From: Candidatus Latescibacterota bacterium
Lineage (GTDB): Bacteria; Latescibacterota; UBA2968; GCA-2709665
Direction: 5' to 3'
Length of the DNA stretch: 64,000 nucleotides
NCBI GenBank assembly: GCA_963667175.2
Contig: CAXXXF010000014.1
Coordinates: 96,001-160,000 of the forward strand
Position numbers and translations under genes: made by a program. The notes under the pieces are model-generated. The model ran no database searches and was not told where the DNA came from. It saw only the letters and a list, made by a program, of their open reading frames with translations. Below are positions 14,278-46,143 of the stretch, in pieces (the stretch's first letter is position 1; each line of letters starts with the position of its first letter).

Positions 14278-15180
14278 CTAATATTCACCGTAGGTTGTAC
14301 GATTGTTGATAAATTTCCTAATCTCCTCGCCGTACCGCACAAAATTCCAACGCTTTGCGCTCCCCTTTTCATTTCTCTCACCGTCGATTTTCTCGCCGGC
14401 TTGGTGATAAAAGCCCCCATAGTAGCTTGGATGGTACGACTTCAGCCAAAACACTGAATGGTCATCTCCTGCTTGTGCGTCACGATCGAGCCTTAAATGT
14501 GCAATATTGGCGACGTTTCGCTGGGGATCGATACCATCGATATCCGACACCCGATTGACCATTTGGAACGCATTTTCTACTGCGACTCCGTGAGCATATT
14601 TGCCCTGAGTAATGATCACGTCAGGCTTAAGGATCTGCAATTCTTTAGATAAATACTCTCTGCAATTCTCGTAAACTCTCGGAGGCTCCTGGCGCTTTCC
14701 ATTTGCGTTAGAGCAACACTTCGCCGCTCTCACGTGAACAAAGAGGTCATGAATCACCGCTAATTTTTCTCTCTCATCCCAGTATCTTACTGGTTCAGGA
14801 AAACATTCCTCCCCAATGAAGGGATGGAGGATGCTCCGCACTATCCCCAAGGTTTCTCGCCAGTGAGGGTTCAGATGCCCTTGCGGACAATCGGGTTTCA
14901 CGTTCCTCTTCGGTTGGGGCGGGGACAGCGAAAGAACCAGGATACGGGGGATTGAGTAGCCGTGGAAGTCTCTATCCTCGTAGTATCGGCTAACGCAAAC
15001 ACCGTCTGTCGGAGGCGAAAAGTCTGCATCTTTCTTTTTCTGTCTGCAGGCTGCACGACATTCACATTTCTTTGAACAACCAAACGCTTCGAACCTATCT
15101 TCGAAACAAAGGTCGCTATCCACAGGCGCGATGCCACTGCACTCGTAATATTGGTTAAGGCGTTTTTGCGTCTCATTCAT
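14278..15180 (-). CDS. Uracil-DNA glycosylase-superfamily protein (divergent, Cys-rich)
   Basis: AKCC, NCREYLSKELQILKPDVIITQG and YHPS motifs. Confidence 0.65.
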   Translation of the reverse strand: MNETQKRLNQYYECSGIAPVDSDLCFEDRFEAFGCSKKCECRAACRQKKKDADFSPPTDGVCVSRYYEDRDFHGYSIPRILVLSLSPPQPKRNVKPDCPQGHLNPHWRETLGIVRSILHPFIGEECFPEPVRYWDEREKLAVIHDLFVHVRAAKCCSNANGKRQEPPRVYENCREYLSKELQILKPDVIITQGKYAHGVAVENAFQMVNRVSDIDGIDPQRNVANIAHLRLDRDAQAGDDHSVFWLKSYHPSYYGGFYHQAGEKIDGERNEKGSAKRWNFVRYGEEIRKFINNRTTYGEY

Positions 15181-15232
15181 CGCTAAGTGCCTCTCAATGC
15201 GGTTTCAAATCTTCCTTCCACGGATGCCTTAG

Positions 15233-16784
15233 CAGTCCGTTGAAAAAACGGGATTTCAGCGAAGAATCGTGGAAAAGAGGGTAGGGTATGTTTGATGTGT
15301 GTTGCGTGTCGGCAATGGGCACTAAGTTTTCAAATAGGGAAAGAATGCGGAAAGACGCCGTGAAATTGTTTTACGGGCCTCGAGAGCGCGTTTGAGGCGA
15401 TGAACAAAGGTGCCGAATGCCGATAGCAACCCATGCAACGCCCTCGGGGTGCCCTTGCCGGTGATCTGTCGCATCACGAGGGAGAGATTGAAAGCGCCGC
15501 CGTGTATACACAGCCGTTTGTAGATGTTGGTGTGGCCGCGCAGGTGCGTGCGACGCATCCCCCCGGTTTCATAGGTGTGCGCAAAACTGCGTTCTGCCAC
15601 CTCGGCGCGCTGCCGCTGCAGGGCGCGCCCACGGACGCCTCGTATGCGCCGGCGATTTGCATACACCGCCATCTTGGCCGCCGCATCCTTTTTCCAGTTT
15701 CGCCGTCCGCGATCCGGTTCCGAGACGTAGCTGCGGATCTTTGCCGTCTTCAAGGTCTTCATGGTGTGATTGCTGTGATATCCCTTATCCGCCACCACTT
15801 CGCGAAGTGCCGTCTTGTCATCGATGTCCCCGACCGCTTGCAGATTCCGGTCGGCTTGGTCCAAACTCCCGCCCAGCGACTCGGTGTCCCCTTTATCGGC
15901 GCCACATACCGTTATGGCCACCAGCGCCTGAGTGTCCAGATCGACCGTATGCTCGGCCTTGTGAGCCAAATGCGTGCGTCCGTCCTTCATCTTGGTAACG
16001 CGGGCATCCGCATCATGGGGATGTTCCCAGTCCTTGTTGGAAGCCTTATTCGTGCGCTTCTTGTCGAGCCGGGCCAGGTCCTGCTTCGTCGGGGTTGGGA
16101 TGCCTTCGGCCCGGGCCAGCCCTTCCAGGTACTCGTGGTAGGCTTTGCCCGTGTCCCGGCGCACGATGCTTTTCATCGCCGCGTTGGCTTCCAGCGTGGT
16201 GGCGTCCACCGCCACCGTCTTGCCCTTGAGCAGGTCGTGGCCGACCAACACCTTCAGCACAAACGTGAAGACCGCTTCGTGCACCTCCACCGGCAAGCGC
16301 TGCCTTATGCGCGACAGACTCGAGTGATCCGGCGGCGATTCGCTCAAGGGAATACCCAGAAAGCGGCGCAGACAAAGCGAATCGGCAACACGCCAGGCGA
16401 TGCCCCGCTCCGAGCTCAAACCCTCGAAATAGCCGATCATCAGCATGCGGAAATACACCCCGGGAACGATACTGGGACGCCCCAACGTCTCCGCGTAATA
16501 CGGCGCGCACTGCCCTTCCACAAAGGGATCGAAACCACCCTCGGACAGCAGCCTGTTCAGGCGCGTGTAAAACGGATGCCCAGGACCCTCGGACAGCGTG
16601 CTGGAAGGCACCCACATTTCCTCCTGATGACTTTCTTGACGCCTGCTCATCGACATCACCGACCTCCTTCAACACTCGACTTCTCTGCTTACTGCACGTT
16701 TCCTCTATCTTACCAACAAACACATGACACAAACAATACTTTTTTGACCATGACTTCGAAAATTCATACTTTTTCAACAGGCTG
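15233..16784 (-). mobile_element. IS1182/IS5-like insertion sequence
   Basis: TIRs CAGTCCGTTGAAAAA / TTTTTCAACAGGCTG, flanked by TTAG and TTAA; contains a DDE transposase. Confidence 0.88.
15322..16659 (-). CDS. DDE transposase (IS1182/IS5-like)
   Basis: GRPSI, PDHSSLSR, AVDAT, ADKGYH and ERSFA motifs. Confidence 0.92.
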   Translation of the reverse strand: MMSMSRRQESHQEEMWVPSSTLSEGPGHPFYTRLNRLLSEGGFDPFVEGQCAPYYAETLGRPSIVPGVYFRMLMIGYFEGLSSERGIAWRVADSLCLRRFLGIPLSESPPDHSSLSRIRQRLPVEVHEAVFTFVLKVLVGHDLLKGKTVAVDATTLEANAAMKSIVRRDTGKAYHEYLEGLARAEGIPTPTKQDLARLDKKRTNKASNKDWEHPHDADARVTKMKDGRTHLAHKAEHTVDLDTQALVAITVCGADKGDTESLGGSLDQADRNLQAVGDIDDKTALREVVADKGYHSNHTMKTLKTAKIRSYVSEPDRGRRNWKKDAAAKMAVYANRRRIRGVRGRALQRQRAEVAERSFAHTYETGGMRRTHLRGHTNIYKRLCIHGGAFNLSLVMRQITGKGTPRALHGLLSAFGTFVHRLKRALEARKTISRRLSAFFPYLKT

Positions 16785-17331
16785 TTAAAGCTCGGATCTT
16801 GACTATCACAACCGATGGGTATCCGCGCCGATCGGATTGTTTGATGAGACTTGGGCCAACACACAACCTGCACCTGACGAGTCTAACGAGGGCGGACGCG
16901 AGCGGTGTCGCGGAACGCCTGTTCAAGGTCCGAAAAATTGTATGTGATTGTAGCGTCCTGGGCGAGTGTCCTTTGCTGCAAATCCGTAAAAGTCGGACGT
17001 GTCCATTGCGGGATTCATTGAAATTTCCTTAGATGTCGGAAATTATCCGGAATTTCAGCCATCTCTGGCGTCATGCGATTCTCCTCCTTCCTTAAGATCC
17101 AGTTTGGCAAGTTCCTGACGTATAATATACTTAGAGCAAATCCGCAAAGCACGGCCCAGACGCAGATTGCCCCTCACGTCGCTCCAGTCACCCCTGCAGA
17201 CGTCCCTGAACACGCGCGCCGAAAGGTGTTCCATTCTGGTTATATGACGATCCCCGTAGTGTCGTCCTGGTTTGGTTTCCAGATTGACGTCGACCCACCG
17301 GTAATAACTATCTTTCTGGCGCTGCCGTCGG

Positions 17332-18756
17332 GGGAATGTACCTATCTTAGTTGAAATAGAAGAGGCTCCGATGTAAATTGGATACAGTAGTCCCGAGTAG
17401 AATACTGTATCCTCATACGAAAGGAGCCTGTAATGAGCAAGGTATCATCGAAGTCTCGTGAAGTCAAGTTGAACACGGAAGGTGTTGTGAGTTCCAGGGC
17501 GGTCTCCGCAGGTATGCTGGAGGATGTTGACGTCCGTGTGGCCTTGATCCAGTCGCTGATCCCTCTGGGTCTGGCCGCCGTGGAAGAAATCTTGCAGAAT
17601 GAGGTCGCCGCGTTGACGGGCAAGAGATACAGTCGTAAAGCAGACAAGGCCCCGAATCGCCGGTGGGGCGTGCAACGTGGATCGGTGTATCTATCGGACC
17701 AGAAAGTGCCCGTGGCGGTACCGAGGGTGCGCGACGTGGAAGCCAATGAGGAGGTGCCTCTACAGGCGTATCGCCGCTTGCAGCGCCCCAGAGACATGGA
17801 CGAAGGGTTGCTGCTTCGCGTTCTGGGCGGCCTTGCCACGCGTTCTTACGCCAGTTGCGCAGAGGCGGTACCCGAGGCGTTTGGCTTGTCTTCGTCGACG
17901 GTCTCGAAGCGGTTCATAAAGACATCAGCGGCCAAGCTGAGGCAGTTTCAAGAACGGTCGCTTGCCGGCTATGACCTGGTGGGGCTGTTTATGGATGGCA
18001 AGACCTTTGCCGATCAGCAAATGATCATCGCCCTTGGCGTGACAATCGACGGGGACAAGGTCCCGCTGGGGTTCGTGCAGGCCGCCAGTGAAAATGAGCG
18101 CGTGTGCCGGCAGTTTGTCAATTCGCTCATCGATCGCGGACTGCAGTATCACCAGGGGCTGCTGTGCCTCATCGACGGCTCGAAGGGGTTGCGGACCGCG
18201 CTGACCAAGGCCCTATCCGGATACGTCGCCATTCAACGCTGCCAGTGGCACAAACGGGAAAACGTGATCGCCTATCTGCCAAAATCACAGCAGGATGAGG
18301 TCAGAAAGGCCCTCCACGATGCGTACGACAAGGAGACCTACAACGAAGCCAAAGCCGCGCTACAGGCCCTCAAACCCTCCCTGGCGCTGAGGAACGCATC
18401 GGCACTGAACAGCCTCGAGGAAGGGCTCGAAGAAACCCTCACCCTCCATCGGCTGGGGCTCATGCCACAGCTCAAACAATCGTTCCGCACCACCAACTGT
18501 ATCGAATCCCTCAACGCCATGGTCGCTCAGCGCACACGAAATGTAAAACGATGGAACAACTCCGATCAGCGATATCGGTGGTTGGCAGCCGCGCTGTTAG
18601 ACATCGAGCCACGACTGCGGAGAATCAAAGGATACCGCTTTCTTCCTATACTCAGACTTGCCCTACAAAAACACCTCAACCTCGATCACGACGCGCAAGA
18701 GGCTTTCGCCGCCGACTAAACGCCTCTCCCGTTTCAACTAAAAATAGTACTTGCCC
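17332..18756 (+). mobile_element. IS256-family insertion sequence
   Basis: Imperfect ~35-bp TIRs (GGGAATGTACCTATCTTAGTTGAAA / TTTCAACTAAAAATAGTACTTGCCC) and 8-bp TSD GCCGTCGG (17324-17331, 18757-18764). Confidence 0.92.
17433..18719 (+). CDS. IS256-family transposase
   Basis: VPRVR, LFMDG, IDGSKGL, QRCQWHKREN and RTTNCIESLN motifs. Confidence 0.93.
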   Translation: MSKVSSKSREVKLNTEGVVSSRAVSAGMLEDVDVRVALIQSLIPLGLAAVEEILQNEVAALTGKRYSRKADKAPNRRWGVQRGSVYLSDQKVPVAVPRVRDVEANEEVPLQAYRRLQRPRDMDEGLLLRVLGGLATRSYASCAEAVPEAFGLSSSTVSKRFIKTSAAKLRQFQERSLAGYDLVGLFMDGKTFADQQMIIALGVTIDGDKVPLGFVQAASENERVCRQFVNSLIDRGLQYHQGLLCLIDGSKGLRTALTKALSGYVAIQRCQWHKRENVIAYLPKSQQDEVRKALHDAYDKETYNEAKAALQALKPSLALRNASALNSLEEGLEETLTLHRLGLMPQLKQSFRTTNCIESLNAMVAQRTRNVKRWNNSDQRYRWLAAALLDIEPRLRRIKGYRFLPILRLALQKHLNLDHDAQEAFAAD

Positions 18757-18920
18757 GCCGTCGGTATGTTCTGCTCATACAGAATCACTCCCAATATTCC
18801 CTGTATGGCCCAGGCAGATGTTACCGCGCATTACGTAGCAGTGGTCACGGTTTCAATTCTCTTCCTTCCAGCGTCTTACCTCGTGTTCGTAACCCTTGGA
18901 CGAGGAGCAAGATCCGTCGG

Positions 18921-19757
18921 CTATTCACCTACCTTCTTCACGTTTGCAGATGTTTCTTTCACGTGATCATCGAAACGCTTGAGACCAATTAGATTGATAG
19001 TCGATACTACTGTTTCTTCGTTTGTCAAAAACCACTCCTTTTTGCTGCCCGGAATTCCATGACCTATTATCCTGCGTAGGTGATGCTTGATTTTGGATTC
19101 TAACCGATGTAACTGTTCGTCGTCATCGACGACCCAGATTTCAAGTATCTTTGGCGGTTCCGGCATTCCCGTAGTCTGGTCTCGAATACGCTTGTGCGCA
19201 TTCTTCTTGGACAAACCGATTTTCATATATGTCCTCATTGCGGAATCATCATTCGACGGTTTTATCGGCGCGCTCAAATAACGAGGATACGTATAAAGAT
19301 ATATCCCCGGTACGTTTGCCTTTTCGAATTCTCCAATTCGTCTTATGGTTTCACTCTCAAGATCTGCATTCTCCCTTTCCACTCCCTTGGGATCGTTTGC
19401 ATATCTTTCACATTCTTTCTCTCGTTCCTCAATCTTCCGTTTAGTGGTTTCGCTTAGAACTCCACCATGCCGAGTCCGAAAATTCCGCAACGCGCTTTCA
19501 GTCTGTTTGGCAAGGGTTGGTTTGTCAGGTATTTCTCCATTTATAATTGCGCCGAGGTAACGCCTATAATTGTAGACAAAACCCCTTGTAGCTTTGTCCA
19601 GTTCCTTTTTAATCTCGTCAGGTGTCTTTTTTTCGGGGTAGGTAAGTTTCCAGACGTCTCCGAGTAGCTGATCGTCACTATCAAGTGCCTTTCTTACTTC
19701 CTGCATGTATTTTTCGCCGCCCACTTTACGCCTCCTTCGAGTCTTTATTATATCCAC
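18921..19757 (-). CDS. GIY-YIG/T5orf172-domain protein
   Basis: GIYLY, MKIGLS, RIRDQTTGMPE, LESKIKHHL and KEWF motifs. Confidence 0.75.
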   Translation of the reverse strand: MDIIKTRRRRKVGGEKYMQEVRKALDSDDQLLGDVWKLTYPEKKTPDEIKKELDKATRGFVYNYRRYLGAIINGEIPDKPTLAKQTESALRNFRTRHGGVLSETTKRKIEEREKECERYANDPKGVERENADLESETIRRIGEFEKANVPGIYLYTYPRYLSAPIKPSNDDSAMRTYMKIGLSKKNAHKRIRDQTTGMPEPPKILEIWVVDDDEQLHRLESKIKHHLRRIIGHGIPGSKKEWFLTNEETVVSTINLIGLKRFDDHVKETSANVKKVGE

Positions 19758-20085: not shown

Positions 20086-20113
20086 TTGACAAGCCCCAGC
20101 GATCTGTTAGATT
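20086..20113 (+). promoter_or_regulatory. Sigma70-like promoter of the small TM/coiled-coil gene
   Basis: TTGACA-16-TAGATT with an extended -10 TG. Confidence 0.5.
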
Positions 20114-20979
20114 TCTACTGTATCACAGCTACCTGCAAGTAGCCAATATGAGTATATCCAATGAATGCAAGTAACGGTAAATTCTGGAGCGCCGAAACCA
20201 CCAGAATCATCGTGGCCGTCCTGGCGTTGGCAACATCCAATTTCATCGCTACCTTTGGAATTGTGTATTATATGACAAGCGATCTGGAACGGCGTATGGA
20301 TAGGCGATTCGACAGAATCGAAGTTCGCCTGGACAGAATTGACTCTCGATTGGATTCCTTCGGTGAACGCATCGCCGCGAACGAAGCGAGGCTGAACGCC
20401 AAAGATTAAGAATCCGCCGCACCACGACATTTCGTCAACAGCCCGCCTGCCAGTATGCCAATTGGCAGGCTTTGTTATGCTGACCCCCTTGTGCCAACAT
20501 TCAGTGAGAACACGCACCCTCCGAGTCCAATGTAAAATATCACGGTGGCTTGGCCCCCGGTTCTGGGTCCAGGGTGTTTTCGTGCCGCCCTGCGAGGTCG
20601 ATTTCTCCTCCTGCTCCATCTCCCATAGATCGTCCGCTTTGTCCAGCCCGTCCAGGGAATCCATCATCGCAGCGTTCGCTTCCTCCTCGAAATGCTCTGC
20701 TCGTTCTCGATCACCGGCCTTCCATTTCTCTGCCGCGGCCTCCCAGGCTTTGGCTGCTCCTTTCGCCGCAATACATCCCCTCGCAAGGGCGCCCTGAGCC
20801 TCCGACTCTGCAGACCGCCTGGTGAAATTGCCTTCCCGCTTCGAATAATCGACGGCCGCCTTCTCGGCAATCTCCCGCCACGTGGCCGCTTCCGCCCTTG
20901 CCTTCTTCGCCGCCGCATCGTTAACTGCCACACGTCTCCGGCCCTGTTCGTTACGGGGTTTGTTTTTCTTGTCCGCCAT
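20107..20979 (-). CDS. Hypothetical Ala/Glu/Lys-rich helical protein (3' end uncertain)
   Basis: ATG 20979 with GGAG; the 3' third runs antisense over the 20161 gene and is doubtful. Confidence 0.4.
   Translation of the reverse strand: MADKKNKPRNEQGRRRVAVNDAAAKKARAEAATWREIAEKAAVDYSKREGNFTRRSAESEAQGALARGCIAAKGAAKAWEAAAEKWKAGDRERAEHFEEEANAAMMDSLDGLDKADDLWEMEQEEKSTSQGGTKTPWTQNRGPSHRDILHWTRRVRVLTECWHKGVSITKPANWHTGRRAVDEMSWCGGFLIFGVQPRFVRGDAFTEGIQSRVNSVQANFDSVESPIHTPFQIACHIIHNSKGSDEIGCCQRQDGHDDSGGFGAPEFTVTCIHWIYSYWLLAGSCDTVEI
20161..20409 (+). CDS. Small TM plus heptad coiled-coil protein (paralog of 48394-48630)
   Basis: TM helix, then RFDRIEVRLDRIDSRLDSFGERIAANEARL. Confidence 0.75.
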   Translation: MNASNGKFWSAETTRIIVAVLALATSNFIATFGIVYYMTSDLERRMDRRFDRIEVRLDRIDSRLDSFGERIAANEARLNAKD

Positions 20980-21199
20980 GACGCGTCTCCACGTGTTTAG
21001 AACGCTCGGTCCCGGTCTGTTTATCTGTAGTGGATAGAGCAGTGATCGCTCCATACAATATGAATCAATCCATTTCAAGCGAGGAATGGAAAGTAACGTC
21101 CCCAAGGAGCGACTCCCATGTTTTCTCTCCGACTTCCTTGCCCCCGACGACGGCGCTTGATTGGCCCACCCGAAATGCGCGGTTGAGCTTTCCTGTCGG

Positions 21200-21718
21200 T
21201 CACCCATCCTTGTTGAATGTCAGGGCAAAATCAGGACTGTAGTTTATGACATAACCGTTTGGCTTTCCTAAAAAGGGAACCACACGCGGTAGGGCTTCTC
21301 GTGCCTGTTTCTCGTACGATTCAGGAGTCGACCCGTCCTTGAACGTAATAATCCGATGACGGGATCCGCCGGTCATCGCGTAAAACGTGATCTGACTCGG
21401 TGCGTTTTGCTCCGTCAGAATCACCGCGTGAGGCTTGAAGGTTGCACGATAGGCCTGATCTTCGGCTTCATTCAGTTCCGCGCGGGTGACCTCAATTGAC
21501 TCGTCAATCACGTTGACTTCCACCTCAAGCCACTCTGCAAGCTCGACCCGGAGGTTCTCCGCGAATTCAACCCGACCACCATAGATCTGGTCGATTCGAC
21601 GACAACCTTTTGCGAGATTGGCATATCCCATTCGCCGGACAAGCTTACCGCGGGCGATACCGAGATCCTGCATCCGTTGGCGGATTAAACGCGCTATTGA
21701 AAAATCCCTTCGAGTCAT
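21200..21718 (-). CDS. Hypothetical protein with XRE-like HTH N-terminus
   Basis: LIRQRMQDLGIARGKLVRRMGY; GGGAGG RBS; AT-rich upstream region. Confidence 0.65.
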   Translation of the reverse strand: MTRRDFSIARLIRQRMQDLGIARGKLVRRMGYANLAKGCRRIDQIYGGRVEFAENLRVELAEWLEVEVNVIDESIEVTRAELNEAEDQAYRATFKPHAVILTEQNAPSQITFYAMTGGSRHRIITFKDGSTPESYEKQAREALPRVVPFLGKPNGYVINYSPDFALTFNKDG

Positions 21719-21895
21719 CTTTCCTCCCGGACCGATTCTGCGGAGAAAGTCGAGCCGCAGACGCCCTTTTCCTGAGTCTTCCTCTAATCTTCCTTCTTTA
21801 TAATATACTGTTAATTATATTTTTATTTCGATACGTACATTGTTCGGCTCAAATGCTTAAACGCTGTCACCGGATGAGTCAGTCGCAACCAGCCA

Positions 21896-24676
21896 TCAGA
21901 AGCCAAGGGGTGCGACGCCGGGTTTGTGGCGGCATTCCTCGGCGAGTGCGCGGCCGATGCGCACCGGGTCATTGAGAAAATTCATGATCTTCGCACGCTC
22001 GCGGACGTTCGCGAAGTCCGCGGGCGTGAGTTTTTCGAGTGCGAGTGCCTCCAGGGGCGTTTCACAACCGAAAAAGAGCCTGAACGCCCGTTCGACGCGT
22101 TCCCGGTCCATGTAGAAAAACTCGACCCTGAACATGAAGCGGCGGGCGGCCGCCGGATCGAGCGCTTCCCGCCGATTCGTCGTGCAGGCGAAGGGAAGCG
22201 GGTGCCGCTCCATCTGGCTGAGCATTTCGTTGACCATGCTGGTTTCCCACGACCGCACGGCGTGCTCCCGGTCCATCAGGAGGGAGTCGGCCTCGTCGAA
22301 CACAAGGAATGAACCAGTCTCTACGGCTTCCGTAAAGGCCGCTGCCATCTGCTGTTCGGTTTCCCCCACCCACTTGCTCAACAGATCCGAAGCTCGTTTC
22401 GGCAACAGTTCCATCCCCATTCGTTCGGCAATGTGGCGCACAAAGGCCGTCTTCCCGGTTCCGGGCGGGCCGTACAGACAGAGCGCGAAACGCTTCGCGC
22501 CGATTTCAACCATCCGTGCGGTCAATGCTTCCAGACTCGTATCCGCGTTGACCAGTGTCGGATCGTAATTCCAAATAGGTTCGCCTTTGGAAGGACGGAC
22601 GCCGTAACGCAGTTTCACTTTCTGTTCAACATTCCGCCGGATGACATCCGCGTTCCCCGCGATCATAGCCGCCTGATGCGTGGCCAGATCCAGGTGCCTG
22701 GGGGTCACTTTGTCGTCGTGCGCCAGTTCCGTCGCAAGTCGCCGCGCTTCCGGATCAGTCACCTGTGCATTGGTGAGGATACCGGAGAACACACGCTTCC
22801 TCGCGCCGACGGACATGCGGCGGAATTCGATCGCGTGCATCATCCGGTCGATGAAGAACGGCTGAATCATCCGGTAGAAGCCAATCGAGTTGCACGCCCA
22901 GATGATGGGCACCGGATTTTCTTCGACGATGCGATTCAGCCAGTGTTTCTCCACGCTGTCGAAGTCCTCCATTTCATCGAAGAAAATCACCGAGTCGGGC
23001 TCGTCGGCCAGCGATTCGAGCGCATAATCGAGTGTTTTTGTGCGTGAAACTGAAAGACGCTCCCGGGATCCGACCTCATTGTTGCCGATCGCGTACATCC
23101 GTGCGCCCGCCTCGCCGCAGAGCGTGCGCGCAAATTCGGTTTTTCCGGTTCCTGGGGGTCCGTACAGGAGCATATTGATGCCCTTTTTCTTTGCATCCAT
23201 CGCCGCCGCGAGGGTCTGTCTTACGTCTTCGGCGACCGGCCCCAGATGCGCAAAAGCCGTCCACGGCAGGGCAGCCCGTACCGGCGCCCCCAGTCGTGGG
23301 CGCGCTCTATTGGCGGCGATTGTGAGCTCGGACCGTTCGCAGAGATTGTAAAGGTCCGATTCCGTTCCGCCCACAAGGCAGGTCGTTTCAATGGCCTTCG
23401 CCAGGATGCCCGGCGGACATTCGAGACGATCCACAAGTCGTCTGGCACATTTGGTAGCGTCGATACCCTCGATGCCGCTTTCGGCCAGCATTCGTCCTAG
23501 AATAGCAGCCTGACGCGTCGGGCCGTGGGCAGTGAACCTGACAACCATCGTGAAGCGTCGGAGCATGCTCTCGTCCAGATCTTTCAGACTGTTCGCGGTG
23601 TATATCACCGGAACGGGATTCTCCTCCATCAGCCGGTGGTTGGCGAGGCGGGAGCCGCTGGTGGATTCCAGCGCGTCCTCTGCCTCGTCACACAGAATCG
23701 CGGCTTCGGGCATGGTCTGAAGCAGTGTTTGCGCCATGCGCAGTTCATTGCGCCGGTCGGCGCGCCTGTCGTTATCGGTATCACAGGATTCCTCGTATCC
23801 ACGTCGCAATTCGCCAACCGGGAAAAGTGTCATACCCGAGGCGGCTGCGACAGTTTTGGCAAATTCCGTTTTTCCCGTTCCGGCCCTGCCCCAAAGCAGG
23901 ATGTTGACGCCCTGCGCATCTAAACCCTCGGTACGGTAATTCTTCGTTGCACGCAGAAACCGGAGAGTGTCGTCGCGTTCGCCCACGTGCGCAAAGTCGT
24001 CCAGACACAATGTGGCTTGCAATGGGTCACCGACCAAACGCGCCGTCAACTCGCCCATTTCGCGCACCGGCGGCTGCCAGACTTCCCACATGAAGTCGTT
24101 GATCAGGTCATCGGGGTCGTGGTGGCCGCGCACCCGGGTGGCGACTTCCCAATCGGCGATGCCCACGTCCGCCAGTTCCCGTAGGCCGCGCTCGATCTCG
24201 AGTCGAGGGCGCCTCGGGATAAGCGTCATTGTCTCGACGGGATTGTTACACGAGCGAGCGATGCCATCCCAAATGTCTTTGGCCAGAGTACAGTGGGTGT
24301 AACAGTGTGCGAGTTCAAGCAGCGCGGCGGCCGCCGGCCCCAGCGAGAAGCGATCGACGACAAGACGGGTTGCGGTTGCGTCGCGGCTGAATTCGGGAGG
24401 GCGGCTTGTCTTTTGCTCGAGGACTTGAAATGCTATTTTCAGGTTGACTTTGAGACTCTCCGATGGCACGTCTGCAAATTGCGGGTCGTCCAACAACTCT
24501 TGAAACAGTTCCGAATTATCGATCCAGGATTCGAAATCAGACCGAATGCGTCGACTGAACTGAGCTGCGTGCAATACATTCACCATGTATCTGCGCGCAA
24601 GATACAACGTGTACTCTCCGAACACCGGAGGATGTTTGCTTTCCGAAAACAGATCGTCGATATTTCGTTTGCCCAT
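21896..24676 (-). CDS. AAA+ ATPase with three tandem AAA modules
   Basis: Walker A GRAGTGKT, GPPGTGKT, GPPGTGKT, paired with Walker B ILCDEAED, FFDEMED, VFDEADS; GGGAG upstream of ATG 24676. Confidence 0.9.
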   Translation of the reverse strand: MGKRNIDDLFSESKHPPVFGEYTLYLARRYMVNVLHAAQFSRRIRSDFESWIDNSELFQELLDDPQFADVPSESLKVNLKIAFQVLEQKTSRPPEFSRDATATRLVVDRFSLGPAAAALLELAHCYTHCTLAKDIWDGIARSCNNPVETMTLIPRRPRLEIERGLRELADVGIADWEVATRVRGHHDPDDLINDFMWEVWQPPVREMGELTARLVGDPLQATLCLDDFAHVGERDDTLRFLRATKNYRTEGLDAQGVNILLWGRAGTGKTEFAKTVAAASGMTLFPVGELRRGYEESCDTDNDRRADRRNELRMAQTLLQTMPEAAILCDEAEDALESTSGSRLANHRLMEENPVPVIYTANSLKDLDESMLRRFTMVVRFTAHGPTRQAAILGRMLAESGIEGIDATKCARRLVDRLECPPGILAKAIETTCLVGGTESDLYNLCERSELTIAANRARPRLGAPVRAALPWTAFAHLGPVAEDVRQTLAAAMDAKKKGINMLLYGPPGTGKTEFARTLCGEAGARMYAIGNNEVGSRERLSVSRTKTLDYALESLADEPDSVIFFDEMEDFDSVEKHWLNRIVEENPVPIIWACNSIGFYRMIQPFFIDRMMHAIEFRRMSVGARKRVFSGILTNAQVTDPEARRLATELAHDDKVTPRHLDLATHQAAMIAGNADVIRRNVEQKVKLRYGVRPSKGEPIWNYDPTLVNADTSLEALTARMVEIGAKRFALCLYGPPGTGKTAFVRHIAERMGMELLPKRASDLLSKWVGETEQQMAAAFTEAVETGSFLVFDEADSLLMDREHAVRSWETSMVNEMLSQMERHPLPFACTTNRREALDPAAARRFMFRVEFFYMDRERVERAFRLFFGCETPLEALALEKLTPADFANVRERAKIMNFLNDPVRIGRALAEECRHKPGVAPLGF

Positions 24677-24791
24677 AGCCGGCACTCCCTTCCGCTACTC
24701 GCATTTTCGCCCGCGGCGTTCACCGGATTCGCCGTTCCATTTCCGATGGCCGAAACACAAAAAGAGGCGCGTTCGCGATTGAACACGCCTC

Positions 24792-24826
24792 AAGCTAAAC
24801 AGGATATGCGACGAACCGCGTCGTAT
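24792..24826 (-). promoter_or_regulatory. WYL (DriD-type) box plus -10 element upstream of the triple-AAA gene
   Basis: Minus strand ATACGAC-GCGGTTC-GTCGCAT (24826-24806), then 8 nt, then TAGCTT. Confidence 0.7.
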
Positions 24827-24830
24827 GTCG

Positions 24831-25793
24831 TCAGGTTTTTTTGTAAAATCCCAGATTTTTTTCAAGTTCCTCCGAGATTTCCGCACGAAGCGAGGCCGGT
24901 TTCAGAACTTCGGCGCTGGCGCCGTGGCTCAGAATCCACGCCTTGATCTCATAGAGGCCACCTGCGCGAAAGTGAAGAATGATTCCTTCGTCTTCCAATT
25001 CCTCGATCTCCTGCGACGGGTGCCAGATCCGTTGTCTGATATACGGCGCCTGGGATGCCGAGAAGCGGACGCTAACGTCGATCGGCGCTTCAAGAACGAC
25101 ACCGAATGCCTGATTGAGCTGTTCCTCGATTCCTGAATCTTCGGACGCGTCGAACGACCGGGACGTAATCCGGATATCCTGAATCCGCTCCGCGGCGAGG
25201 GTCAGCAGATTTCCGTATTTCGGATTGCAGCATAGCAGATACACGCCATCGTAATGGTACAGAAACCTGAACGGCAGCACAGGATAGGTCTTGCTTTCAC
25301 CGGTACTCATAGCGCGGTAGGTCACGTTGCAGACTATTCGCTCCGTGATTGCTTCTTGCGCGATTTGAAATACCTGAGGGGTAACTTGAGCCTTCTGTCC
25401 GCGAATATGTGGATGATAGGCCGCCTGTTCCAGGAATGCGCGCATTTTCTCCGGCAGCGTTGTCCGGATCCTGTTCAGGCTTTTCTGATATTCGGTCTTA
25501 AAGGGCGATTCCTCGAGGATTCCAGTGATGTAGGTCAGAGCGATCAGCTCTCCGACCGGGAAATTCAGAGGCGAAACGCTGCTATCGCCCAGGAGTTTCC
25601 AGGTGTTCTGGCGGCCCCGTTTTTCCGTAGTCAGTGGAAATCCGGCGTCGTCAAGGTCGCGCAGGTCGCGCTCAATCGTCCTCCGCGATACCTCGAAATG
25701 CTTCTCAAGATCGTGGATCGTCGCGCCAAATCTGCGCGATGCGAGTTCTCGCAGCATATCCAGCTGACGAACGATCTGTCTCTTGTCTGCCAT
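24831..25793 (-). CDS. HTH-WYL-WCX transcriptional regulator
   Basis: wHTH FEVSRRTIERDLRDL; WYL region PFRF...GVYL...ERI; WCX region WILSHGASAEVLKPASLR. Confidence 0.9.
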   Translation of the reverse strand: MADKRQIVRQLDMLRELASRRFGATIHDLEKHFEVSRRTIERDLRDLDDAGFPLTTEKRGRQNTWKLLGDSSVSPLNFPVGELIALTYITGILEESPFKTEYQKSLNRIRTTLPEKMRAFLEQAAYHPHIRGQKAQVTPQVFQIAQEAITERIVCNVTYRAMSTGESKTYPVLPFRFLYHYDGVYLLCCNPKYGNLLTLAAERIQDIRITSRSFDASEDSGIEEQLNQAFGVVLEAPIDVSVRFSASQAPYIRQRIWHPSQEIEELEDEGIILHFRAGGLYEIKAWILSHGASAEVLKPASLRAEISEELEKNLGFYKKT

Positions 25794-25956: not shown

Positions 25957-26391
25957 TCAGGTATCTTCGTCTCCGCTCATCGGCAGGTCTTCAGCCGAGA
26001 TGACTCGCCGCCTCGGGCGGTCGACATTCTGAGGATTTCGCTCTCGCTCCTGCTGGACCTGCATGGTATAACGGGCCGTGGGAATCGCTTCCAGCCTGAG
26101 CTCGCCGATCATCTCCCCCGACACTTCGCAGATGCCGTAGGTTTCGTTTTCGATCTTGCCCAGCGCATGGTCGATCTCGGCCAGCTCGCGCCGTTCGTTG
26201 TTGCCCAGGGTCGCCATCAACTCCAGGGAAATCGCGTTCCCGGCCATGTCGAACGGATCCGCGGAACGGTCCTTTCTGAGTTCGTCAATGTCGGCATCTT
26301 CCAGGCTGGTTTGTTTCAACAGGTCTTTCTTCCGATCCAGCAGCAACTTCTGGTAAAACGCCAGCTTTTCAGGTGTCAGTTTCTCGGGCAT
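25957..26391 (-). CDS. dksA: DksA/TraR-family RNA polymerase regulator
   Basis: DPFDMA coiled-coil tip (DxxDxA); IDHALGKIENETYGIC...RLEAIPTA. Confidence 0.85.
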   Translation of the reverse strand: MPEKLTPEKLAFYQKLLLDRKKDLLKQTSLEDADIDELRKDRSADPFDMAGNAISLELMATLGNNERRELAEIDHALGKIENETYGICEVSGEMIGELRLEAIPTARYTMQVQQERERNPQNVDRPRRRVISAEDLPMSGDEDT

Positions 26392-26702
26392 ATCACCTTC
26401 GACCTCCGCGGCGCCAGACCCTTCTCATGGAACCTGCATCCCCATCGACACCGCGCAAAGATGTCGATAGATTTCTCCCGAAAATGTTCAGATCTCTACT
26501 GGCGCCGGACCCCGATCCCGCTACCGGAGCGTGCCTCATCGGAATTTTCGGACGAAAATTTATCGTTCCGAATATCGAAAGTCAAGCCCCAAATTTGAAA
26601 AAAAACACCCTCATTTCCTGCCAGTGGGAAAAACGCCGGCCGATACTTCCCGTGGAGTCGGAATCCGTTGCAATGAGCGGCGGTATCACACAGAGGAAGT
26701 CG

Positions 26703-27377
26703 TCAGGCCCGGCCCTGTGACGGGCACAACGCGCCCACACCGCATGCGTCGCAATCCGGCGACCGGGCGCTGCAGATCGCCCGTCCGTGATGAATAAACA
26801 GATGCGGCAGATCCACCCAGTCTTTCTTTGGGACCAGCCCGATCAGGTCCTGTTCGATTTTGACAGGGTCCTGCCTGCGGGTAAGGCCCAGACGATTGGA
26901 AATCCGGCGCACGTGCGTATCCACCACCACGCCTTCTGCAATACCGAATGCGTTGCCGAGAACGACGTTGGCGGTCTTTCTTCCAACGCCGTCGAGAGCC
27001 ACCAGTTCATCCAGAGTCCGTGGCACCTCGCCGCCGTGGTTTTCCAGCAGCGCCCGGCAGCACCCCTGGATGTTGCGCGCCTTGTTGCGAAAAAAACCCG
27101 TCGAGCGGATGAGATCCTCCAATTCTTCAAGGGGCGCATCGGCATAATCCGCGGCCGTCGGACACCGCTCGAAGAGACCGGGCGTCACCCTATTGACGCG
27201 TTCGTCGGTACACTGTGCCGAGAGCATCGTGGCGATCAGCAACTGGAGCGGATTCTCGTAAGACAGCGAACACTCGGCGTCAGGATAGACGCCCCTTAAC
27301 TTTCCGATGATCGCCCGCGTCCTCGACCGCCTCGCAACCAGATCTTCGTCCGGCTCCATCGTATCGGAATTCCTCAT
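26703..27377 (-). CDS. nth: Endonuclease III
   Basis: LSAQCTD, GVGRKTANVV, VVDTHV and C-terminal 4Fe-4S Cys motif. Confidence 0.92.
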   Translation of the reverse strand: MRNSDTMEPDEDLVARRSRTRAIIGKLRGVYPDAECSLSYENPLQLLIATMLSAQCTDERVNRVTPGLFERCPTAADYADAPLEELEDLIRSTGFFRNKARNIQGCCRALLENHGGEVPRTLDELVALDGVGRKTANVVLGNAFGIAEGVVVDTHVRRISNRLGLTRRQDPVKIEQDLIGLVPKKDWVDLPHLFIHHGRAICSARSPDCDACGVGALCPSQGRA

Positions 27378-27388
27378 CTGCTCCGCGG

Positions 27389-28177
27389 CTACCACGGCCG
27401 CACCGCGGGGACTGGCTGTTCGAGGCCGTCCGCGCGAACGTTCTCGCCATTCACCCAGCGGGCGCGGTCCGACGCCAGAAACACGACCACGTCGGCGACG
27501 TCTTCCGGAGATCCGAGGCCGCCCATGGGAAATCCGTCTCTCTCGTAAGCGGCGAACACTTCCGGTTTTTCCTGACGCAACCCGTCCCACCCGCCGCCTT
27601 CGAAAATGATCGACCCCGGCGATACCACGTTTACGCGGATGCGGTCGTGCACCAGCTCGAGCGCCATGGGTTCGGCCATGAAAATCTGGGCGGCTTTGGA
27701 CGCGCCGTACTGAACCGCGCCGCTCAGCTGCGGTATCCATCCCGAGATGGACGAAATGAACACCACCGAACCGCCGCCTCGCGCTCGCATGTGAGGGACC
27801 ACGAGCCGGGTCAGCCGCACGCCGTGGAACACGTTTTTGTCGAAGGTCTCCACCCAATCCTCGTCGGTCGAATCCATCAGCCTGTCGCCGGACCGGCCGC
27901 CCACGTTATTGATGAGGACGTCGATTCCGCCAAGCCGTGCAGCGGATTCCTCCACAAACCGCTCAGCGTCGTCAGGGTCCTGCACGTCCGCCTGGATGGC
28001 GGAAACGCGAACGCCCAGCGCTTCGATTTTCGCCGCTGCCTCTTCCAACGTCTCCTCCCGCCGCGCGCAGATCGCGACGTCGCATCCCTCCGTCGCCAGT
28101 CCCATCGCCGTCGCGAGACCGATCCCGCGGTTCCCACCCGTCACCAGCGCGACTTTTCCCTTCAGATTCATATCCAT
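27389..28177 (-). CDS. SDR-family oxidoreductase
   Basis: TGGNRGIG, NNVG, YGASK. Confidence 0.92.
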   Translation of the reverse strand: MDMNLKGKVALVTGGNRGIGLATAMGLATEGCDVAICARREETLEEAAAKIEALGVRVSAIQADVQDPDDAERFVEESAARLGGIDVLINNVGGRSGDRLMDSTDEDWVETFDKNVFHGVRLTRLVVPHMRARGGGSVVFISSISGWIPQLSGAVQYGASKAAQIFMAEPMALELVHDRIRVNVVSPGSIIFEGGGWDGLRQEKPEVFAAYERDGFPMGGLGSPEDVADVVVFLASDRARWVNGENVRADGLEQPVPAVRPW

Positions 28178-28474
28178 GAAGACCTCCATTCAATTATCTA
28201 TTTTACCGTAGACTCTTCCCCACCCCACAAAATCCCGTATTCCCTTTCAAGAGGCGGTGAGACGGGAAAGAGAAGAAGGAATACGGGTTGGTCATCCTGC
28301 GGCTTATCCATTGTGTCCTGACAGGTCGCCTGTCGGCGGACAACCCACTCAAAATTGCTTTCGTGCAGGAGACAGGCCTTCGCGAATTGACGAATTGACA
28401 AAGCCAGACAATATGGATATCCAGTGGACACCGGGTGATCGTCTCCCCTCTCCCGTCTTACGTTTCACCACTCT

Positions 28475-28654: not shown

Positions 28655-29764
28655 CTAATCGGTTTTGGCAGGATGCTGAGCGCTGTCTGTTTTGAGTTTG
28701 TCTACGAAGCATCGGACGAACGCAGCGACTTCAGATAATTCCTCAGTGTAGCAAAAGCGTTCTTTTAGAGGGACCTTATATCCGTCCTCAAAATCGATCC
28801 CAAGCTCTTGTAGCAGCGTCTTTAATTTCTCCAGCTTGGAGTTATCGGGGGGCTCGGGTTCGATTCTTAGAAATACCTCAAAACGCCAACCTTTTGGGTC
28901 AATTGCGGTGTTGAACCCGATGATTTCGGAAAACGAAGAGTGCTTGAGATTATAGCAGAGAACATCATAGAGCTTGTGCGGCTCTCTCCACTTGAGCTGG
29001 CTTTCACAAATCTTGCCGACAGACTCTTCCAACTCCTTCTCGAGATCCAAAACTCTCCTGCGGAGTTCGTTCTTGAACTTATCAATTCTCTTGAAGAAAT
29101 CCGTGGCCTTTGTGAGATTGTCATCATTTTCCAGGAAACGGGCTAATTCTTCGTTCATTATCCTGCCCTCCCGCAGACCGTCAACTGTATTCAGGAAATC
29201 AAGCATGAACGTGAGATAACGGGTATTCGCTCTTGAGACTTTGTACCCGAGCTGCGATCTGACTTCGTTGAACAACTGCTCGTACGTGATATTCTTGAAC
29301 GGTTCGACGTCGCCGCCTGGTTTGAGGCTCAGAATAAACAGGTGTTTCTTGAGATGCACGTAATGCGTTTCTACGTGCTTTATATAGTCTTCAAATGGGT
29401 TGCTGATTTCGTGAAAAATCTTGTTCTCGATCACGATGGCATGGCTTTCAGACTGAATCAAGAGGTCGATCCGACTCCCCTTCCGGGTGGTTTCTTCGCG
29501 GCGGATCTGTATATCGCCACCGATCTCCCTTCCCTGTTCTCCGATGCAGCCAGCCCGCACAAGAGCATCCAGAAACAGCGTTCCGAGTCCATGCGGGTTG
29601 CCGGGATCAAGGAAGAAGGCGAGAATGTTGCTGCACACATTCTCGTAGTGAGGATAGCCTGAAATTTCCATCAACGTCGGCGGGCGCTCGGGACGCGGCG
29701 GAACCTGTTTGCTAAATTCGTCCAGGAGAGTCTGGGCAGCATCCACGTCCCATCCATCGTTCAT
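28655..29764 (-). CDS. PD-(D/E)XK nuclease-family protein (PDDEXK_4-like)
   Basis: ENVCSNILAFFLDP...HGLG, RREE...RIDLLI...IVIENKI. Confidence 0.85.
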   Translation of the reverse strand: MNDGWDVDAAQTLLDEFSKQVPPRPERPPTLMEISGYPHYENVCSNILAFFLDPGNPHGLGTLFLDALVRAGCIGEQGREIGGDIQIRREETTRKGSRIDLLIQSESHAIVIENKIFHEISNPFEDYIKHVETHYVHLKKHLFILSLKPGGDVEPFKNITYEQLFNEVRSQLGYKVSRANTRYLTFMLDFLNTVDGLREGRIMNEELARFLENDDNLTKATDFFKRIDKFKNELRRRVLDLEKELEESVGKICESQLKWREPHKLYDVLCYNLKHSSFSEIIGFNTAIDPKGWRFEVFLRIEPEPPDNSKLEKLKTLLQELGIDFEDGYKVPLKERFCYTEELSEVAAFVRCFVDKLKTDSAQHPAKTD

Positions 29765-29824: not shown

Positions 29825-30331
29825 CTATATTAGCACGTAGGGAGAATTCGCCAAGACAAACCGAGCTTTTTCACGGCGTAACATTTCAAACGGCGTCAGA
29901 CACTTGATACCGAGACCTATACAGACGCTGGGGATCTTTATCCTGTTCATAGATGGTGACGGGATCTCGTGTGTAACAACGTCATAACCACCTGCAAGCG
30001 CGTGGGCGATCAGGTAACAGTCAGCCACTTGCAGAAAAGTGTCGATGGCTGCAGCCTGGTAACCGTGGCCTCTTATCCAATCACCGACTGTTCCAAGCGC
30101 TACAAGCACCTCCATGGTCGGTTTAAGAAAAAAGGCATCGCCACGACAGTCTGCCCAAATCGCAAGGTCGTCTTCGCCGGCTGCGACTTCGTCGGCGACT
30201 TTTTCAATGCTGAAAACGATTCCCCGTTCGTTCGCCGTGACCAGCCAATTCCAGAACCCAGGACATATTTCGAAGCCGTAATGCAAGTTCTTGGCACGGA
30301 TAAAAGCGTCTGCATCAAGCAAATATGCCAT
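29825..30331 (-). CDS. DUF4411-family PIN-like protein
   Basis: YLLDAD, CPGFW, ADCYLIAHA, VVTHE, KIPSVC; directly follows the IrrE gene. Confidence 0.85.
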   Translation of the reverse strand: MAYLLDADAFIRAKNLHYGFEICPGFWNWLVTANERGIVFSIEKVADEVAAGEDDLAIWADCRGDAFFLKPTMEVLVALGTVGDWIRGHGYQAAAIDTFLQVADCYLIAHALAGGYDVVTHEIPSPSMNRIKIPSVCIGLGIKCLTPFEMLRREKARFVLANSPYVLI

Positions 30332-31480
30332 CTACGATCCCACTTTCAGACTCGTGGCAAATGCCCGTAACGTCGATACCTTCTTGATTCCGAGAAGACG
30401 GAAGGACTCGGAAAACGAAGTCCTCCCACCCAGTGTGCTGGTCACAATGGCGCCGCCAAACCGCCCACCCACACGCGCCTTGAGCGTGGGATGGAAGCTA
30501 CCACCGCTCGTCTTTTCAATGTTCCCTATTCGATCCAGTTCTCGGCCGTAGGCGGACCCAAGCGCATCACGGTCGAGCACGCCGCCATCGTGGAGCCGAC
30601 GCAGTACGACCAAGGTGCTGACTTTGAATTGGCGAGCAAGGCGGTTCAGCTGGATTGGAAGTTCCTCCCTCTTACGGTAACTCTCAAGTAAGGACCTGAG
30701 TGGTACGAGAAGCTCGGCGGCGACACGGTTGCACCAACCCTCTATTTCGTGGGCAGGCACGGAAACCACGTCAGCATCGGAAAGCGCAGATTCGCCAAGC
30801 CAGATGTGCCCGAGTTCATGTGCCAGCGTAAACATCTGTGCCGCTTTGGTGTCGGCGCCGTTAATAAAGACAAGCGGTGCAAGATCGTCGCTCAGGGCGA
30901 AGCCCCGAAACTCTTCGGGGTCCAGCCTGCGGCGGGTGTTGTTGCCAACGATCCCGCTTGTCATCACCAATACGCCCAGTGCATCGGCCTGCTGAATAAA
31001 GCGTCTTAGCGCCTCGGTCCAGGTACGTAGATCGTTCCTCTCCTCGACGTCGAAACCCAGTTCGGCTCTAATCTCTTCCGCAGTGGTCTCAACGTCGCTG
31101 CCAGTTGTAGTGGAACCCACGAACGCCAGCGGATCTTCTCCCTCAATGCGTGCATAGTCACGGTACCAATCCTGGCGCCGTAAGCAGAGATAAACAGTTT
31201 CCAAAAGTTCGACGCTGGGCCGTCCGACGAACTCATTGCCTATCGTTCGCATGTCAGGTATAGGGACCGGTTCATCAAGTGGCGCAGAGAGAAAGAACGA
31301 ACCGATCGGCGCATAGGTGACCCGGGCAAGCTTCTCCAGTTGCTTGAGCGTCGGCTGTTTCTCACCGCTTTCCCACTCAGGATACCTGGGAAATCGCTTA
31401 ACGAGAGCGTCGACGTGAATGCCCGCCCGCTCGCGCGCCCAGCGAAACATCTCCGGTTTGACATCAACGCGCAGTGTCAT
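30332..31480 (-). CDS. XRE-HTH plus ImmA/IrrE metallopeptidase
   Basis: WESGEKQPTLKQL HTH; FTLAHELGH zinc motif; EGWCNRVAAELL. Confidence 0.9.
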   Translation of the reverse strand: MTLRVDVKPEMFRWARERAGIHVDALVKRFPRYPEWESGEKQPTLKQLEKLARVTYAPIGSFFLSAPLDEPVPIPDMRTIGNEFVGRPSVELLETVYLCLRRQDWYRDYARIEGEDPLAFVGSTTTGSDVETTAEEIRAELGFDVEERNDLRTWTEALRRFIQQADALGVLVMTSGIVGNNTRRRLDPEEFRGFALSDDLAPLVFINGADTKAAQMFTLAHELGHIWLGESALSDADVVSVPAHEIEGWCNRVAAELLVPLRSLLESYRKREELPIQLNRLARQFKVSTLVVLRRLHDGGVLDRDALGSAYGRELDRIGNIEKTSGGSFHPTLKARVGGRFGGAIVTSTLGGRTSFSESFRLLGIKKVSTLRAFATSLKVGS

Positions 31481-31762
31481 TGGCGACTCCTCCATGTCCG
31501 AAAATGGCGTAGCGCTGCATCAAACCGCGCTTGATTTTCCCAATCTTCGTGAAAAGTCTCGAAGATGTGGATGAACTGCGACTCGCTTACGCCATATAGT
31601 TGCGCGATTACGGAATCTAAATTGCAAATCATAGCTTATTGTTTTTTATTTGTTTAGGCCCAGTATTTTTCTCGCTAAGGGAAAAGGGAGAAAAAAAGCC
31701 GCCGCTCGGCGCCGACAGGCCGTGCCGTTTACCGCTGCAAACTGAAACCTGCAGTTGCGACA

Positions 31763-44122: not shown

Positions 44123-44228
44123 AGGCTTAGGGACTCTTAGTTATAATCTCCGAATATATGTTACCTTACAATAGTGCGCAATCCGTCTTGTAGAACTGAA
44201 CACCATCATCACAACGATACTGAGCAAG

Positions 44229-44321
44229 TGTCGCGAAACGCAACAGTTGCAGGTTTCGGTTTTCCCTTTGTGTCTTTGTGGCTTCGTGTGAGGATTGCGT
44301 TGGTGGAAGCCCGACGTAACC
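44229..44321 (+). repeat. ~90-bp direct repeat, copy 1
   Basis: TGTCGC...ACAGTTGCAGGTTTCGGTTTT(T)CCCTTTGTGTCTTTGTG...GACGTAACC; matches 46039-46125. Confidence 0.85.
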
Positions 44322-44352
44322 GCTGCGCCAGGCCCCCCGGCAACCTCCCTAA

Positions 44353-44377: not shown

Positions 44378-44381
44378 ACTG

Positions 44382-46125: not shown

Positions 46126-46143
46126 CCTGGTCGATGCCCCGGC

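Follow-up and report, generated by a model that had tools for sequence, protein, structure and literature searches.

We analyzed a 64,000-nt window of a Candidatus Latescibacterota genome (contig CAXXXF010000014.1, positions 96,001 to 160,000) and focused on two adjacent minus-strand genes that encode a WYL-domain regulator and a large AAA+ ATPase. The original prediction, made from the sequence alone, had read this locus as a self-contained module in which single-stranded DNA (ssDNA) from phage or damage switches on the ATPase. Every element on which it relied was confirmed from the sequence and by Pfam: an HTH-WYL-WCX gene, a DriD-type box, TAGCTT 8 nt further on with no -35 element, and a gene for an ATPase of ~926 aa, following one another in that order on the minus strand. 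The WYL stop codon and the box are separated by 4 nt. We also found an 11-bp hairpin followed by a T-run, absent from the earlier account, that starts directly after TAGCTT. The features of the locus are as follows:
25793..24831, minus strand: gene for a DriD-family winged helix-turn-helix (wHTH)-WYL-WCX regulator, 320 aa, assigned by Pfam and by homology to structures in the PDB
24826..24806, minus strand: DriD-type operator ATACGAC-GCGGTTC-GTCGCAT, 21 bp, assigned by its match to the published site and by conservation
24798..24793, minus strand: -10-like hexamer TAGCTT, exactly 8 nt after the box, assigned by sequence, spacing and conservation
24791..24764, with a T-run tail to ~24754, minus strand: intrinsic-terminator-like hairpin, 11 bp with a loop of 6, from a terminator scan
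24693..24685, minus strand: Shine-Dalgarno-like GGAAGGGAG, ~70 nt past the hairpin and with 8 nt between its end and the ATG, read from the sequence
24676..21896, minus strand: gene for a tandem triple-AAA+ ATPase, 926 aa, ATG at 24676 and stop at 21896, assigned by Pfam, AlphaFold2 and Foldseek
23957..24676, minus strand: N-terminal helical domain of the ATPase (aa 1-240), family-specific, assigned by DSSP on the model and by homology to relatives with two AAA modules
23297..23956, minus strand: AAA module D1 (approx. aa 241-460), with Walker A GRAGTGKT, Walker B CDEAED and Arg373/Arg374
22577..23296, minus strand: AAA module D2 (approx. aa 461-700), with Walker A GPPGTGKT and Walker B FDEMED
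21899..22576, minus strand: AAA module D3 (approx. aa 701-926), classic clade, with SKWVGE, Walker B FDEADS and Arg845/Arg846

The site bound by DriD of Caulobacter crescentus is published as ATACGAC(X)7GTCGTAT (PMC13004042), and a DriD probe, ATACGACCGTTTCTGTCGCA, and the didA site, ATACGTCCGTTTCTGGCGCA, are given in PMC9186387; both agree with the DriD site given in the original prediction. The box in the window differs from the published site at one position. When the window was searched for ATACGAC-N7-GTCGTAT with at most one mismatch, this was the only site found, against 0.01 expected from 100 shuffles. With three mismatches allowed the search gave 6 sites against 6.0 expected, and the core CGAC-N7-GTCG occurred 3 times against 3.08 expected. 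Since these looser versions of the motif occur at chance level, the window by itself is thin evidence, and the weight has to come from other genomes. The motif search of the window identified no second box upstream of the WYL gene, which fits the lack of autoregulation described for DriD.

A consensus scan between the WYL and ATPase genes found no sigma-70-type promoter with a -35 element, and by eye the hexamer at the -35 position, GCGGTT, 17 nt upstream of TAGCTT, matches TTGACA at one of six positions. According to the cryo-electron microscopy paper on DriD, the sites of DriD-activated promoters overlap the place of a -35 element, which these promoters lack, and their distance to the -10 element does not vary (PMC13004042). 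In the Caulobacter promoters printed there, the 21-bp site is followed after 8 nt by CAAGGT (didA), CAATCT (CCNA_03891/01149) or CAAGCC (bapE). The reading of these hexamers as -10 elements is our own and is fixed by the 'optimised -35' probe of the same paper, in which TTGACA stands 17 nt before CAATCT. The window promoter has the same 8-nt spacing between site and hexamer, so that at the level of sequence it is built like the fixed-distance, -35-less promoters of the DriD family. TAGCTT is conserved as TAnCTT in two related loci, L003 and L001.

We scanned genomes for related loci with an alignment of 22 ATPase homologues, and all counts rest on the best 80 of 484 confirmed loci, which carry L numbers here. 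The family is well populated in databases, with proteins of roughly 880 to 1030 aa that, where named, are called 'AAA family ATPase' or 'SpoVK/Ycf46/Vps4 family' alone. The triple-AAA form was present in six loci (L001, L002, L003, L011, L012 and L031), and the long open reading frame (ORF) of L028 is probably an over-extension; the remaining loci encode a ~690-aa form with the same N-domain and two AAA modules. A WYL gene was detected in 44 of the 80 loci at E<=1e-5 (45 at 1e-3) and lay no more than 800 nt from the AAA gene in 40. Of these neighboring WYL genes, 31 were downstream on the same strand, 6 were divergent and 3 were upstream on the same strand, the arrangement seen in the window. 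ORF clustering within 5 kb of the AAA gene identified no third conserved gene family, and together with the adjacency in 40 loci this bears out the earlier claim of a self-contained pair. The other clusters found in more than seven loci were rejected as shadow ORFs, which by their coordinates overlapped the AAA or WYL genes. The regulator-ATPase pair is thus a widespread and as yet unnamed cassette.

The box was conserved in many of these loci. In a strict search (at most two mismatches), 13 of the 80 loci had a site between -600 and +200 relative to the AAA start. We then scored the loci with a symmetrised weight matrix against ~30 random 550-nt control windows per locus, taking the 99th percentile of the controls as threshold, and found a box above threshold near the AAA start in 32 of 77 scanned loci (33, 37 and 32 over three rounds). 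The spacing was fixed: NAnnnT occurred exactly 8 nt past the box in 28 of the 32 box-positive loci, and among the 40 loci scoring above 15 the hexamer, generally of the TAnnnT type, started with TA in 29 and with CA in 8, and ended with T in 34. Of the scanned loci, 26 of the 43 that have a WYL gene also had a box, versus 6 of the 34 that have none (Fisher p = 1.8e-4). In all three gene orders the box tracked the AAA gene and not the WYL gene. Because it precedes the AAA gene on whichever side the WYL gene lies, the AAA promoter is the one that it would serve. L003, a Gemmatimonadota metagenome-assembled genome, has a perfect box at the same place, with a WYL protein 72% and an AAA protein 65% identical to those of the window. 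In six loci (L029, L033, L034, L041, L054 and L071) a strong box stood before the AAA gene and no WYL gene was seen in the fetched flanks; a regulator may act there in trans.

Relatives of the ATPase were found in 22 plasmid or chromid records. In RefSeq, an 'AAA family ATPase' or 'ATP-binding protein' adjoins a 'WYL domain-containing protein' on pRsa of Fuscovulum blasticum and on a plasmid of Novosphingobium humi, so that the cassette is carried by cultured hosts; Paracoccus versutus and Azospirillum brasilense are further cultured carriers. On both plasmids the ATPase gene is preceded by the box and, 8 nt further on, by a TAnnnN hexamer, and the neighboring genes include HEPN, PD-(D/E)XK, UvrD-like and HipA genes. 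When plasmids were searched with the WYL protein, most matches were unrelated WYL regulators (Thermus, cyanobacteria), and the AAA gene was also present in three of the records. Among 50,697 phage records, one, which is unannotated (MT835507.1, 18037-19470), contained a relative of the ATPase, which corresponds to the double-AAA part at 32% identity.

We examined the regulator by Pfam and phmmer. Pfam placed HTH_11 at residues 9-59 (1.2e-9), WYL at 141-209 (1.9e-8) and WCX at 237-312 (3.3e-20), so that the ~320-aa protein has the wHTH, WYL and WCX order of the DriD family, shared by DriD and by DdaA of Acinetobacter. The top matches in the PDB were the DriD chains 9pfq_Q/8tp8_A (E 3.6e-12), which makes DriD the best solved match; residues 7-311 were aligned, and the homology was thus full-length, though weak. 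DriD is a wHTH-three-helix bundle-WYL-WCX activator of an SOS-independent DNA-damage response, and both DriD and DdaA are described as controlling DNA-damage genes via CGAC-N7-GTCG sites. DriD contacts its site through Arg36, Arg37, Thr38, Glu40, Arg41 and Arg43 (PMC10853764). All six residues, among them the DNA-reading Arg37, Glu40 and Arg41, were identical in the window regulator, whose recognition helix reads SRRTIERDLRD versus GRRTAER-MRD in DriD. In the main group of AAA-linked WYL proteins the helix reads SRRTAERMRDAV and the DriD-like Arg residues are kept, and the WYL proteins from two double-AAA loci matched DriD at E 4.8e-51 and 9.6e-53. The window regulator therefore resembles DriD in its operator, its base-contact residues, the build of the promoter and the lack of an operator before its own gene. 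It differs in its distant homology, in four of the seven ssDNA contacts and Tyr240, which are not kept, in having an adjacent multi-AAA ATPase as the predicted target, and in a promoter that appears nested in the terminator of the regulator gene. The terms 'ATPase' and 'AAA' were absent, by term search, from the DriD papers PMC13004042, PMC9186387 and PMC12041258 and from the DdaA paper PMC13010146.

The ATPase has a 100% identical counterpart in the database across the same 926 aa, and Pfam AAA (PF00004) matched three stretches of it. Among 62 aligned homologues the Walker A lysines (K269, K512 and K742) and the Walker B residues (D330/E331, D567/E568 and D794/E795) were invariant or nearly so, and each of the three modules kept one or more Arg residues at the Arg-finger position. 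The AlphaFold2 model (mean predicted local distance difference test score 79.6, predicted template modeling score 0.60) consists of a helical N-domain at ~residues 20-230 and three alpha/beta ATPase modules. The N-domain was all helical by DSSP on the model; searched alone against Pfam it gave nothing above threshold, with DUF7656 as a sub-threshold match, and it is homologous to the N-domain of the relatives with two AAA modules. A weak winged-helix lead for this domain came from the Atlas. D1 and D2 each align to the first of the two AAA modules in those relatives; D1 is therefore a duplicate of D2, and the triple-AAA form arose through duplication of that first module.

The modules of the ATPase resemble those of Cdc48, p97 and VAT and of Rix7, which are AAA+ unfoldases of type II in the classic clade. 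Sequence matches of D3 in the PDB were VAT, Cdc48, Rix7 and p97, the best being VAT (E 5.7e-29). The best Foldseek matches of the model were Cdc48 (2.7e-14), Rix7, p97 and 55LCC, with E-values of ~1e-13 to 1e-14 and template modeling scores of 0.19-0.21, which are low as expected for a flexible multi-domain chain. As in the Cdc48/p97 type, the protein has tandem classic-clade AAA modules with Walker A and B motifs and Arg fingers. D3 carries a double Arg and the aromatic pore-loop-like SKWVGE, at what we take to be the place where such motors carry the aromatic pore loop; by eye, D1 and D2 were without an obvious one. D3 thus appears to have the features of a classic-clade protein-threading motor. 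The N-domain of Cdc48 is beta-rich. Unlike Cdc48 and p97, with their N-D1-D2 build of two rings, the window protein has three modules and an all-helical N-domain that lacks a Pfam match. No result of the analysis gave an indication of the substrate of the ATPase.

We compared both proteins with named systems. PADLOC and NCBIfam gave generic AAA and WYL matches below the family cut-offs for both, in agreement with the earlier statement that the locus is not a recognized, named system. The best PADLOC and NCBIfam match of the ATPase was IetA/IteA of IetAS; it covered the D3 module alone, a single AAA module, and scored 98.4 bits against a curated cut-off of 510. The two ORFs downstream of the ATPase had no PADLOC match, and hence no IetS-like partner was detected. 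Nor did the locus have the operator in the regulator's own promoter and the known defense system downstream that mark CapW and BrxR. A pairing of WYL and multi-AAA ATPase genes was not described in the open literature searched, from which subscription-only papers and supplementary tables were excluded, and the conserved pairing and the nested insulator considered below appear to be new to that literature.

The hairpin after the hexamer is shared by the window, L003 and L001. In all three the hexamer is followed by a hairpin and a U-run, and compensatory changes keep the pairing (GAGGCG/CGCCTC versus GAGACG/CGTCTC). The full hairpin folds at -20.3 kcal/mol, and RNA beginning 6-7 nt past the hexamer at -7.2 to -8.3 kcal/mol; the truncated RNA loses ~12 kcal/mol and its remnant is separated from the U-run. 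RNA started at the predicted promoter, with the start assumed at that distance, would be without the 5' arm of the hairpin, would escape termination and would reach the ATPase gene. Read-through RNA from the WYL gene would carry the full hairpin and would be terminated. If this arrangement of a promoter inside a terminator is true, it would be a compact shield of a possibly harmful gene against read-through. The double-AAA loci have a 6-nt pyrimidine tract at the 3' side of the hexamer, followed by a purine. This tract is complementary to the Shine-Dalgarno sequence of the gene, and the complementarity co-varies among loci that include L006, L009, L016, L019, L034, L042, L044, L050 and L077. 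Cognate pairs of tract and Shine-Dalgarno sequence averaged -9.56 kcal/mol versus -6.87 for non-cognate pairs, and none of 10,000 permutations reached the cognate mean over 27 distinct loci, with kinship ignored. Were transcription to start from that purine, the terminator and the tract/Shine-Dalgarno hairpin would each form solely in read-through RNA.

The reading that we consider probable is that the two genes form a cassette in which the DriD-family activator switches on the Cdc48-like triple-AAA ATPase via the box. Under this reading a dimer of the WYL regulator probably binds ATACGAC-N7-GTCGCAT at the -35 position of a promoter that has no -35 element. Once its WYL/WCX pocket is loaded with ligand, the dimer would recruit RNA polymerase and the ATPase gene would be turned on. 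The ligand would most likely be ssDNA arising from DNA damage or phage replication. Transcription of the WYL gene itself, perhaps in common with dksA, is probably constitutive from upstream and stops at a strong terminator, in which the activator-dependent promoter would be nested. DriD-type activation is an already known kind of mechanism.

Several observations weigh against this reading. The window regulator is a distant relative of DriD (E 3.6e-12), and in the phmmer alignment its ssDNA pocket is less well kept than its DNA-reading helix. Three of the seven ssDNA-contact positions of DriD are kept (Tyr168, Ser172 and Tyr192), Arg178, Arg189, Arg204 and Arg207 are replaced by Tyr, Tyr, Leu and Ala, and the signaling residue Tyr240 aligns to Val. 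Tyr240 is described as a key signaling residue, with Phe in its place in homologues that lack it (PMC12041258). Since the ssDNA contacts and Tyr240 are replaced, the ligand may differ from that of DriD; single pocket positions could be shifted because the alignment is at low identity. The altered pocket was common to the closest WYL relatives of the window (L003, L001, L021 and L010). On the side of the loci, 36 of the 80 had no WYL gene, most of them with ~8 kb of flank on each side, and 45 of the 77 scanned had no box above threshold. The matrix was refined on the same loci that it scored, so that the control windows guard against chance and not against circularity. The loci without a WYL gene or box include three other triple-AAA loci (L011, L012 and L031), and in L001, which is closely related, the box is degraded and its score of 10.1 falls below the threshold. 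Because so many loci have no WYL gene or box, the ATPase family is not obligatorily under DriD-type control. Furthermore, CapW and BrxR, WYL regulators of the same architecture, are repressors, and the transcription start that we used is an assumed one. Taken together, the regulatory half of the original prediction was well supported by sequence and comparison, while its ssDNA signal was at most inferred, with three of seven contacts kept.

The role of the ATPase may be read in another way that is compatible with the regulatory mechanism we favor, since it concerns function alone. The ATPase could be a member of a chromosomal DriD/DdaA-like DNA-damage regulon, for example an unfoldase that strips trapped or cross-linked proteins off DNA, with its adjacency to the regulator incidental and the locus neither self-contained nor anti-phage. 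Such a role would suit the DNA-damage genes that DriD and DdaA govern through CGAC-N7-GTCG, the HhH-GPD and UDG-like repair genes near the window pair, and the six loci that have a box and no WYL gene within ~8 kb, as expected of regulon members served in trans. Against it, the two genes adjoin in 40 of 80 loci, in three gene orders, in many phyla and on plasmids, which argues for a linked cassette, and the flanking genes are not conserved. We also scanned flanking ORFs with PADLOC, covering 72 of 138 ORFs in 19 of 39 loci. Eight of the 19 loci had at least one flanking ORF (of up to four) that matched a PADLOC model, a suggestive count that comes without a background control and includes one match, to the HhH-GPD repair gene of L003, that is probably a false positive; the models include AbiEi, LmuB, PD-T4-6 and PDC-S26. 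On balance we regard the regulon role as possible but doubtful.

A broader proposal is equally tentative. The pair could be a new mobile, ssDNA-triggered stress or immunity cassette, in which the Cdc48-like unfoldase either brings phage infection to an abortive end or pulls trapped proteins off damaged DNA. Its promoter would lie within an RNA insulator that restricts expression to transcripts started by the activator; the triple-AAA clade would use the terminator for this and the double-AAA clade an anti-Shine-Dalgarno hairpin. We would not expect this proposal to hold in full.

We considered it rather improbable that the WYL protein is instead a repressor of the CapW/BrxR type that blocks the AAA promoter until a ligand releases it. 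CapW and BrxR have the same wHTH-WYL-WCX build, stand next to the genes that they control, repress adjacent defense genes, such as those of CBASS, BREX and other systems, and often lie in defense islands, and CapW senses ssDNA (PMC11662680 and PMC9122601). The commonest gene order among the related loci, box, AAA and WYL (31 of 80), puts the box before both genes, as in autoregulated repressor operons. However, CapW and BrxR usually repress from their own promoter, and in the window the WYL gene ends before the box, which makes autoregulation of that gene impossible. The promoter, with its single match in six, has no -35 element to occlude, and site, spacing and recognition-helix residues all agree with DriD, an activator. 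The last alternative, that the box is a palindrome formed by chance or belongs to the WYL 3' end or terminator, that it has no regulatory role and that the AAA gene is read through or transcribed from an unrecognized promoter, was already disfavored and is very improbable, since the chance-level frequency of the loose motif versions and the strong terminator between box and AAA gene are met by the 0.01 expected occurrences of the full motif, the conservation of the box in loci with no WYL gene upstream, the fixed hexamer spacing and the co-occurrence with WYL genes (p = 1.8e-4).

The WYL activators DriD, DdaA and PafBC represent a second, SOS-independent route of ssDNA sensing in bacteria and are known to control genes for division inhibitors, nucleases and repair. 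Our data show that DriD-family regulators are physically linked, in many phyla and on plasmids, to one family of large Cdc48-like ATPases via a DriD-type promoter. This gives a precise regulatory prediction for an uncharacterised protein family, whose members would be candidates for a bacterial equivalent of damage-induced protein extraction or else for new defense effectors.

The surroundings of the pair were examined in the window. The neighboring features are:
25957-28189, minus strand: SDR, HhH-GPD glycosylase and DksA/TraR zinc-finger genes, upstream of the WYL gene, syntenic with L003 4534-6740 (dksA 85% identical)
20107-21718, minus strand: two ORFs of 172 and 366 aa downstream of the ATPase, preceded by a promoter-like site at 21831..21802
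18921-19757, minus strand: T5orf172 gene
17433-18719, plus strand: Mutator-family transposase
15322-16659, minus strand: DUF772 transposase
14278-15180, minus strand: UDG-superfamily gene
28655-29764, minus strand: PD-(D/E)XK (PDDEXK_4) gene, with a match (E 6.5e-87) to PDC-S26, a candidate system in PADLOC
29825-31495, minus strand: DUF4411 gene followed by an M78/ImmA-IrrE-like peptidase gene, with RmrA/capP-like PADLOC matches

The SDR, HhH-GPD, dksA, WYL and AAA genes and the 172-aa ORF were syntenic with L003, and because of this synteny the pair belongs to a conserved block, with variable DNA of mobile appearance on its flanks. The earlier placement of the pair at the edge of an island is therefore uncertain. 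Among the related loci dksA adjoins the pair in the window and L003 alone, and it was left out of the module for this reason. The 172- and 366-aa ORFs were likewise left out, since neither matched Pfam or PADLOC and L003 alone among the related loci shares them. The dksA and WYL genes could have a common promoter in the promoter-like TTGACT-17-TAAATT at 26585..26557.

On the far side of the two ORFs, 14278-19757 is a mobile-looking stretch. PDC-S26-like genes also flank the cassette in L022 and L031, and the DUF4411/M78 pair resembles a two-gene pair of the toxin/regulator type. Long ORFs (565 to 946 aa) without a Pfam family at E<=1e-4 lie at 32125-35963 (plus strand), 38690-41530 (minus strand) and 44209-48149 (minus strand). 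The G+C content around the pair was ~0.50-0.60 versus 0.62-0.65 outside, and a local minimum of 0.43 occurs in the window at 42-44 kb.

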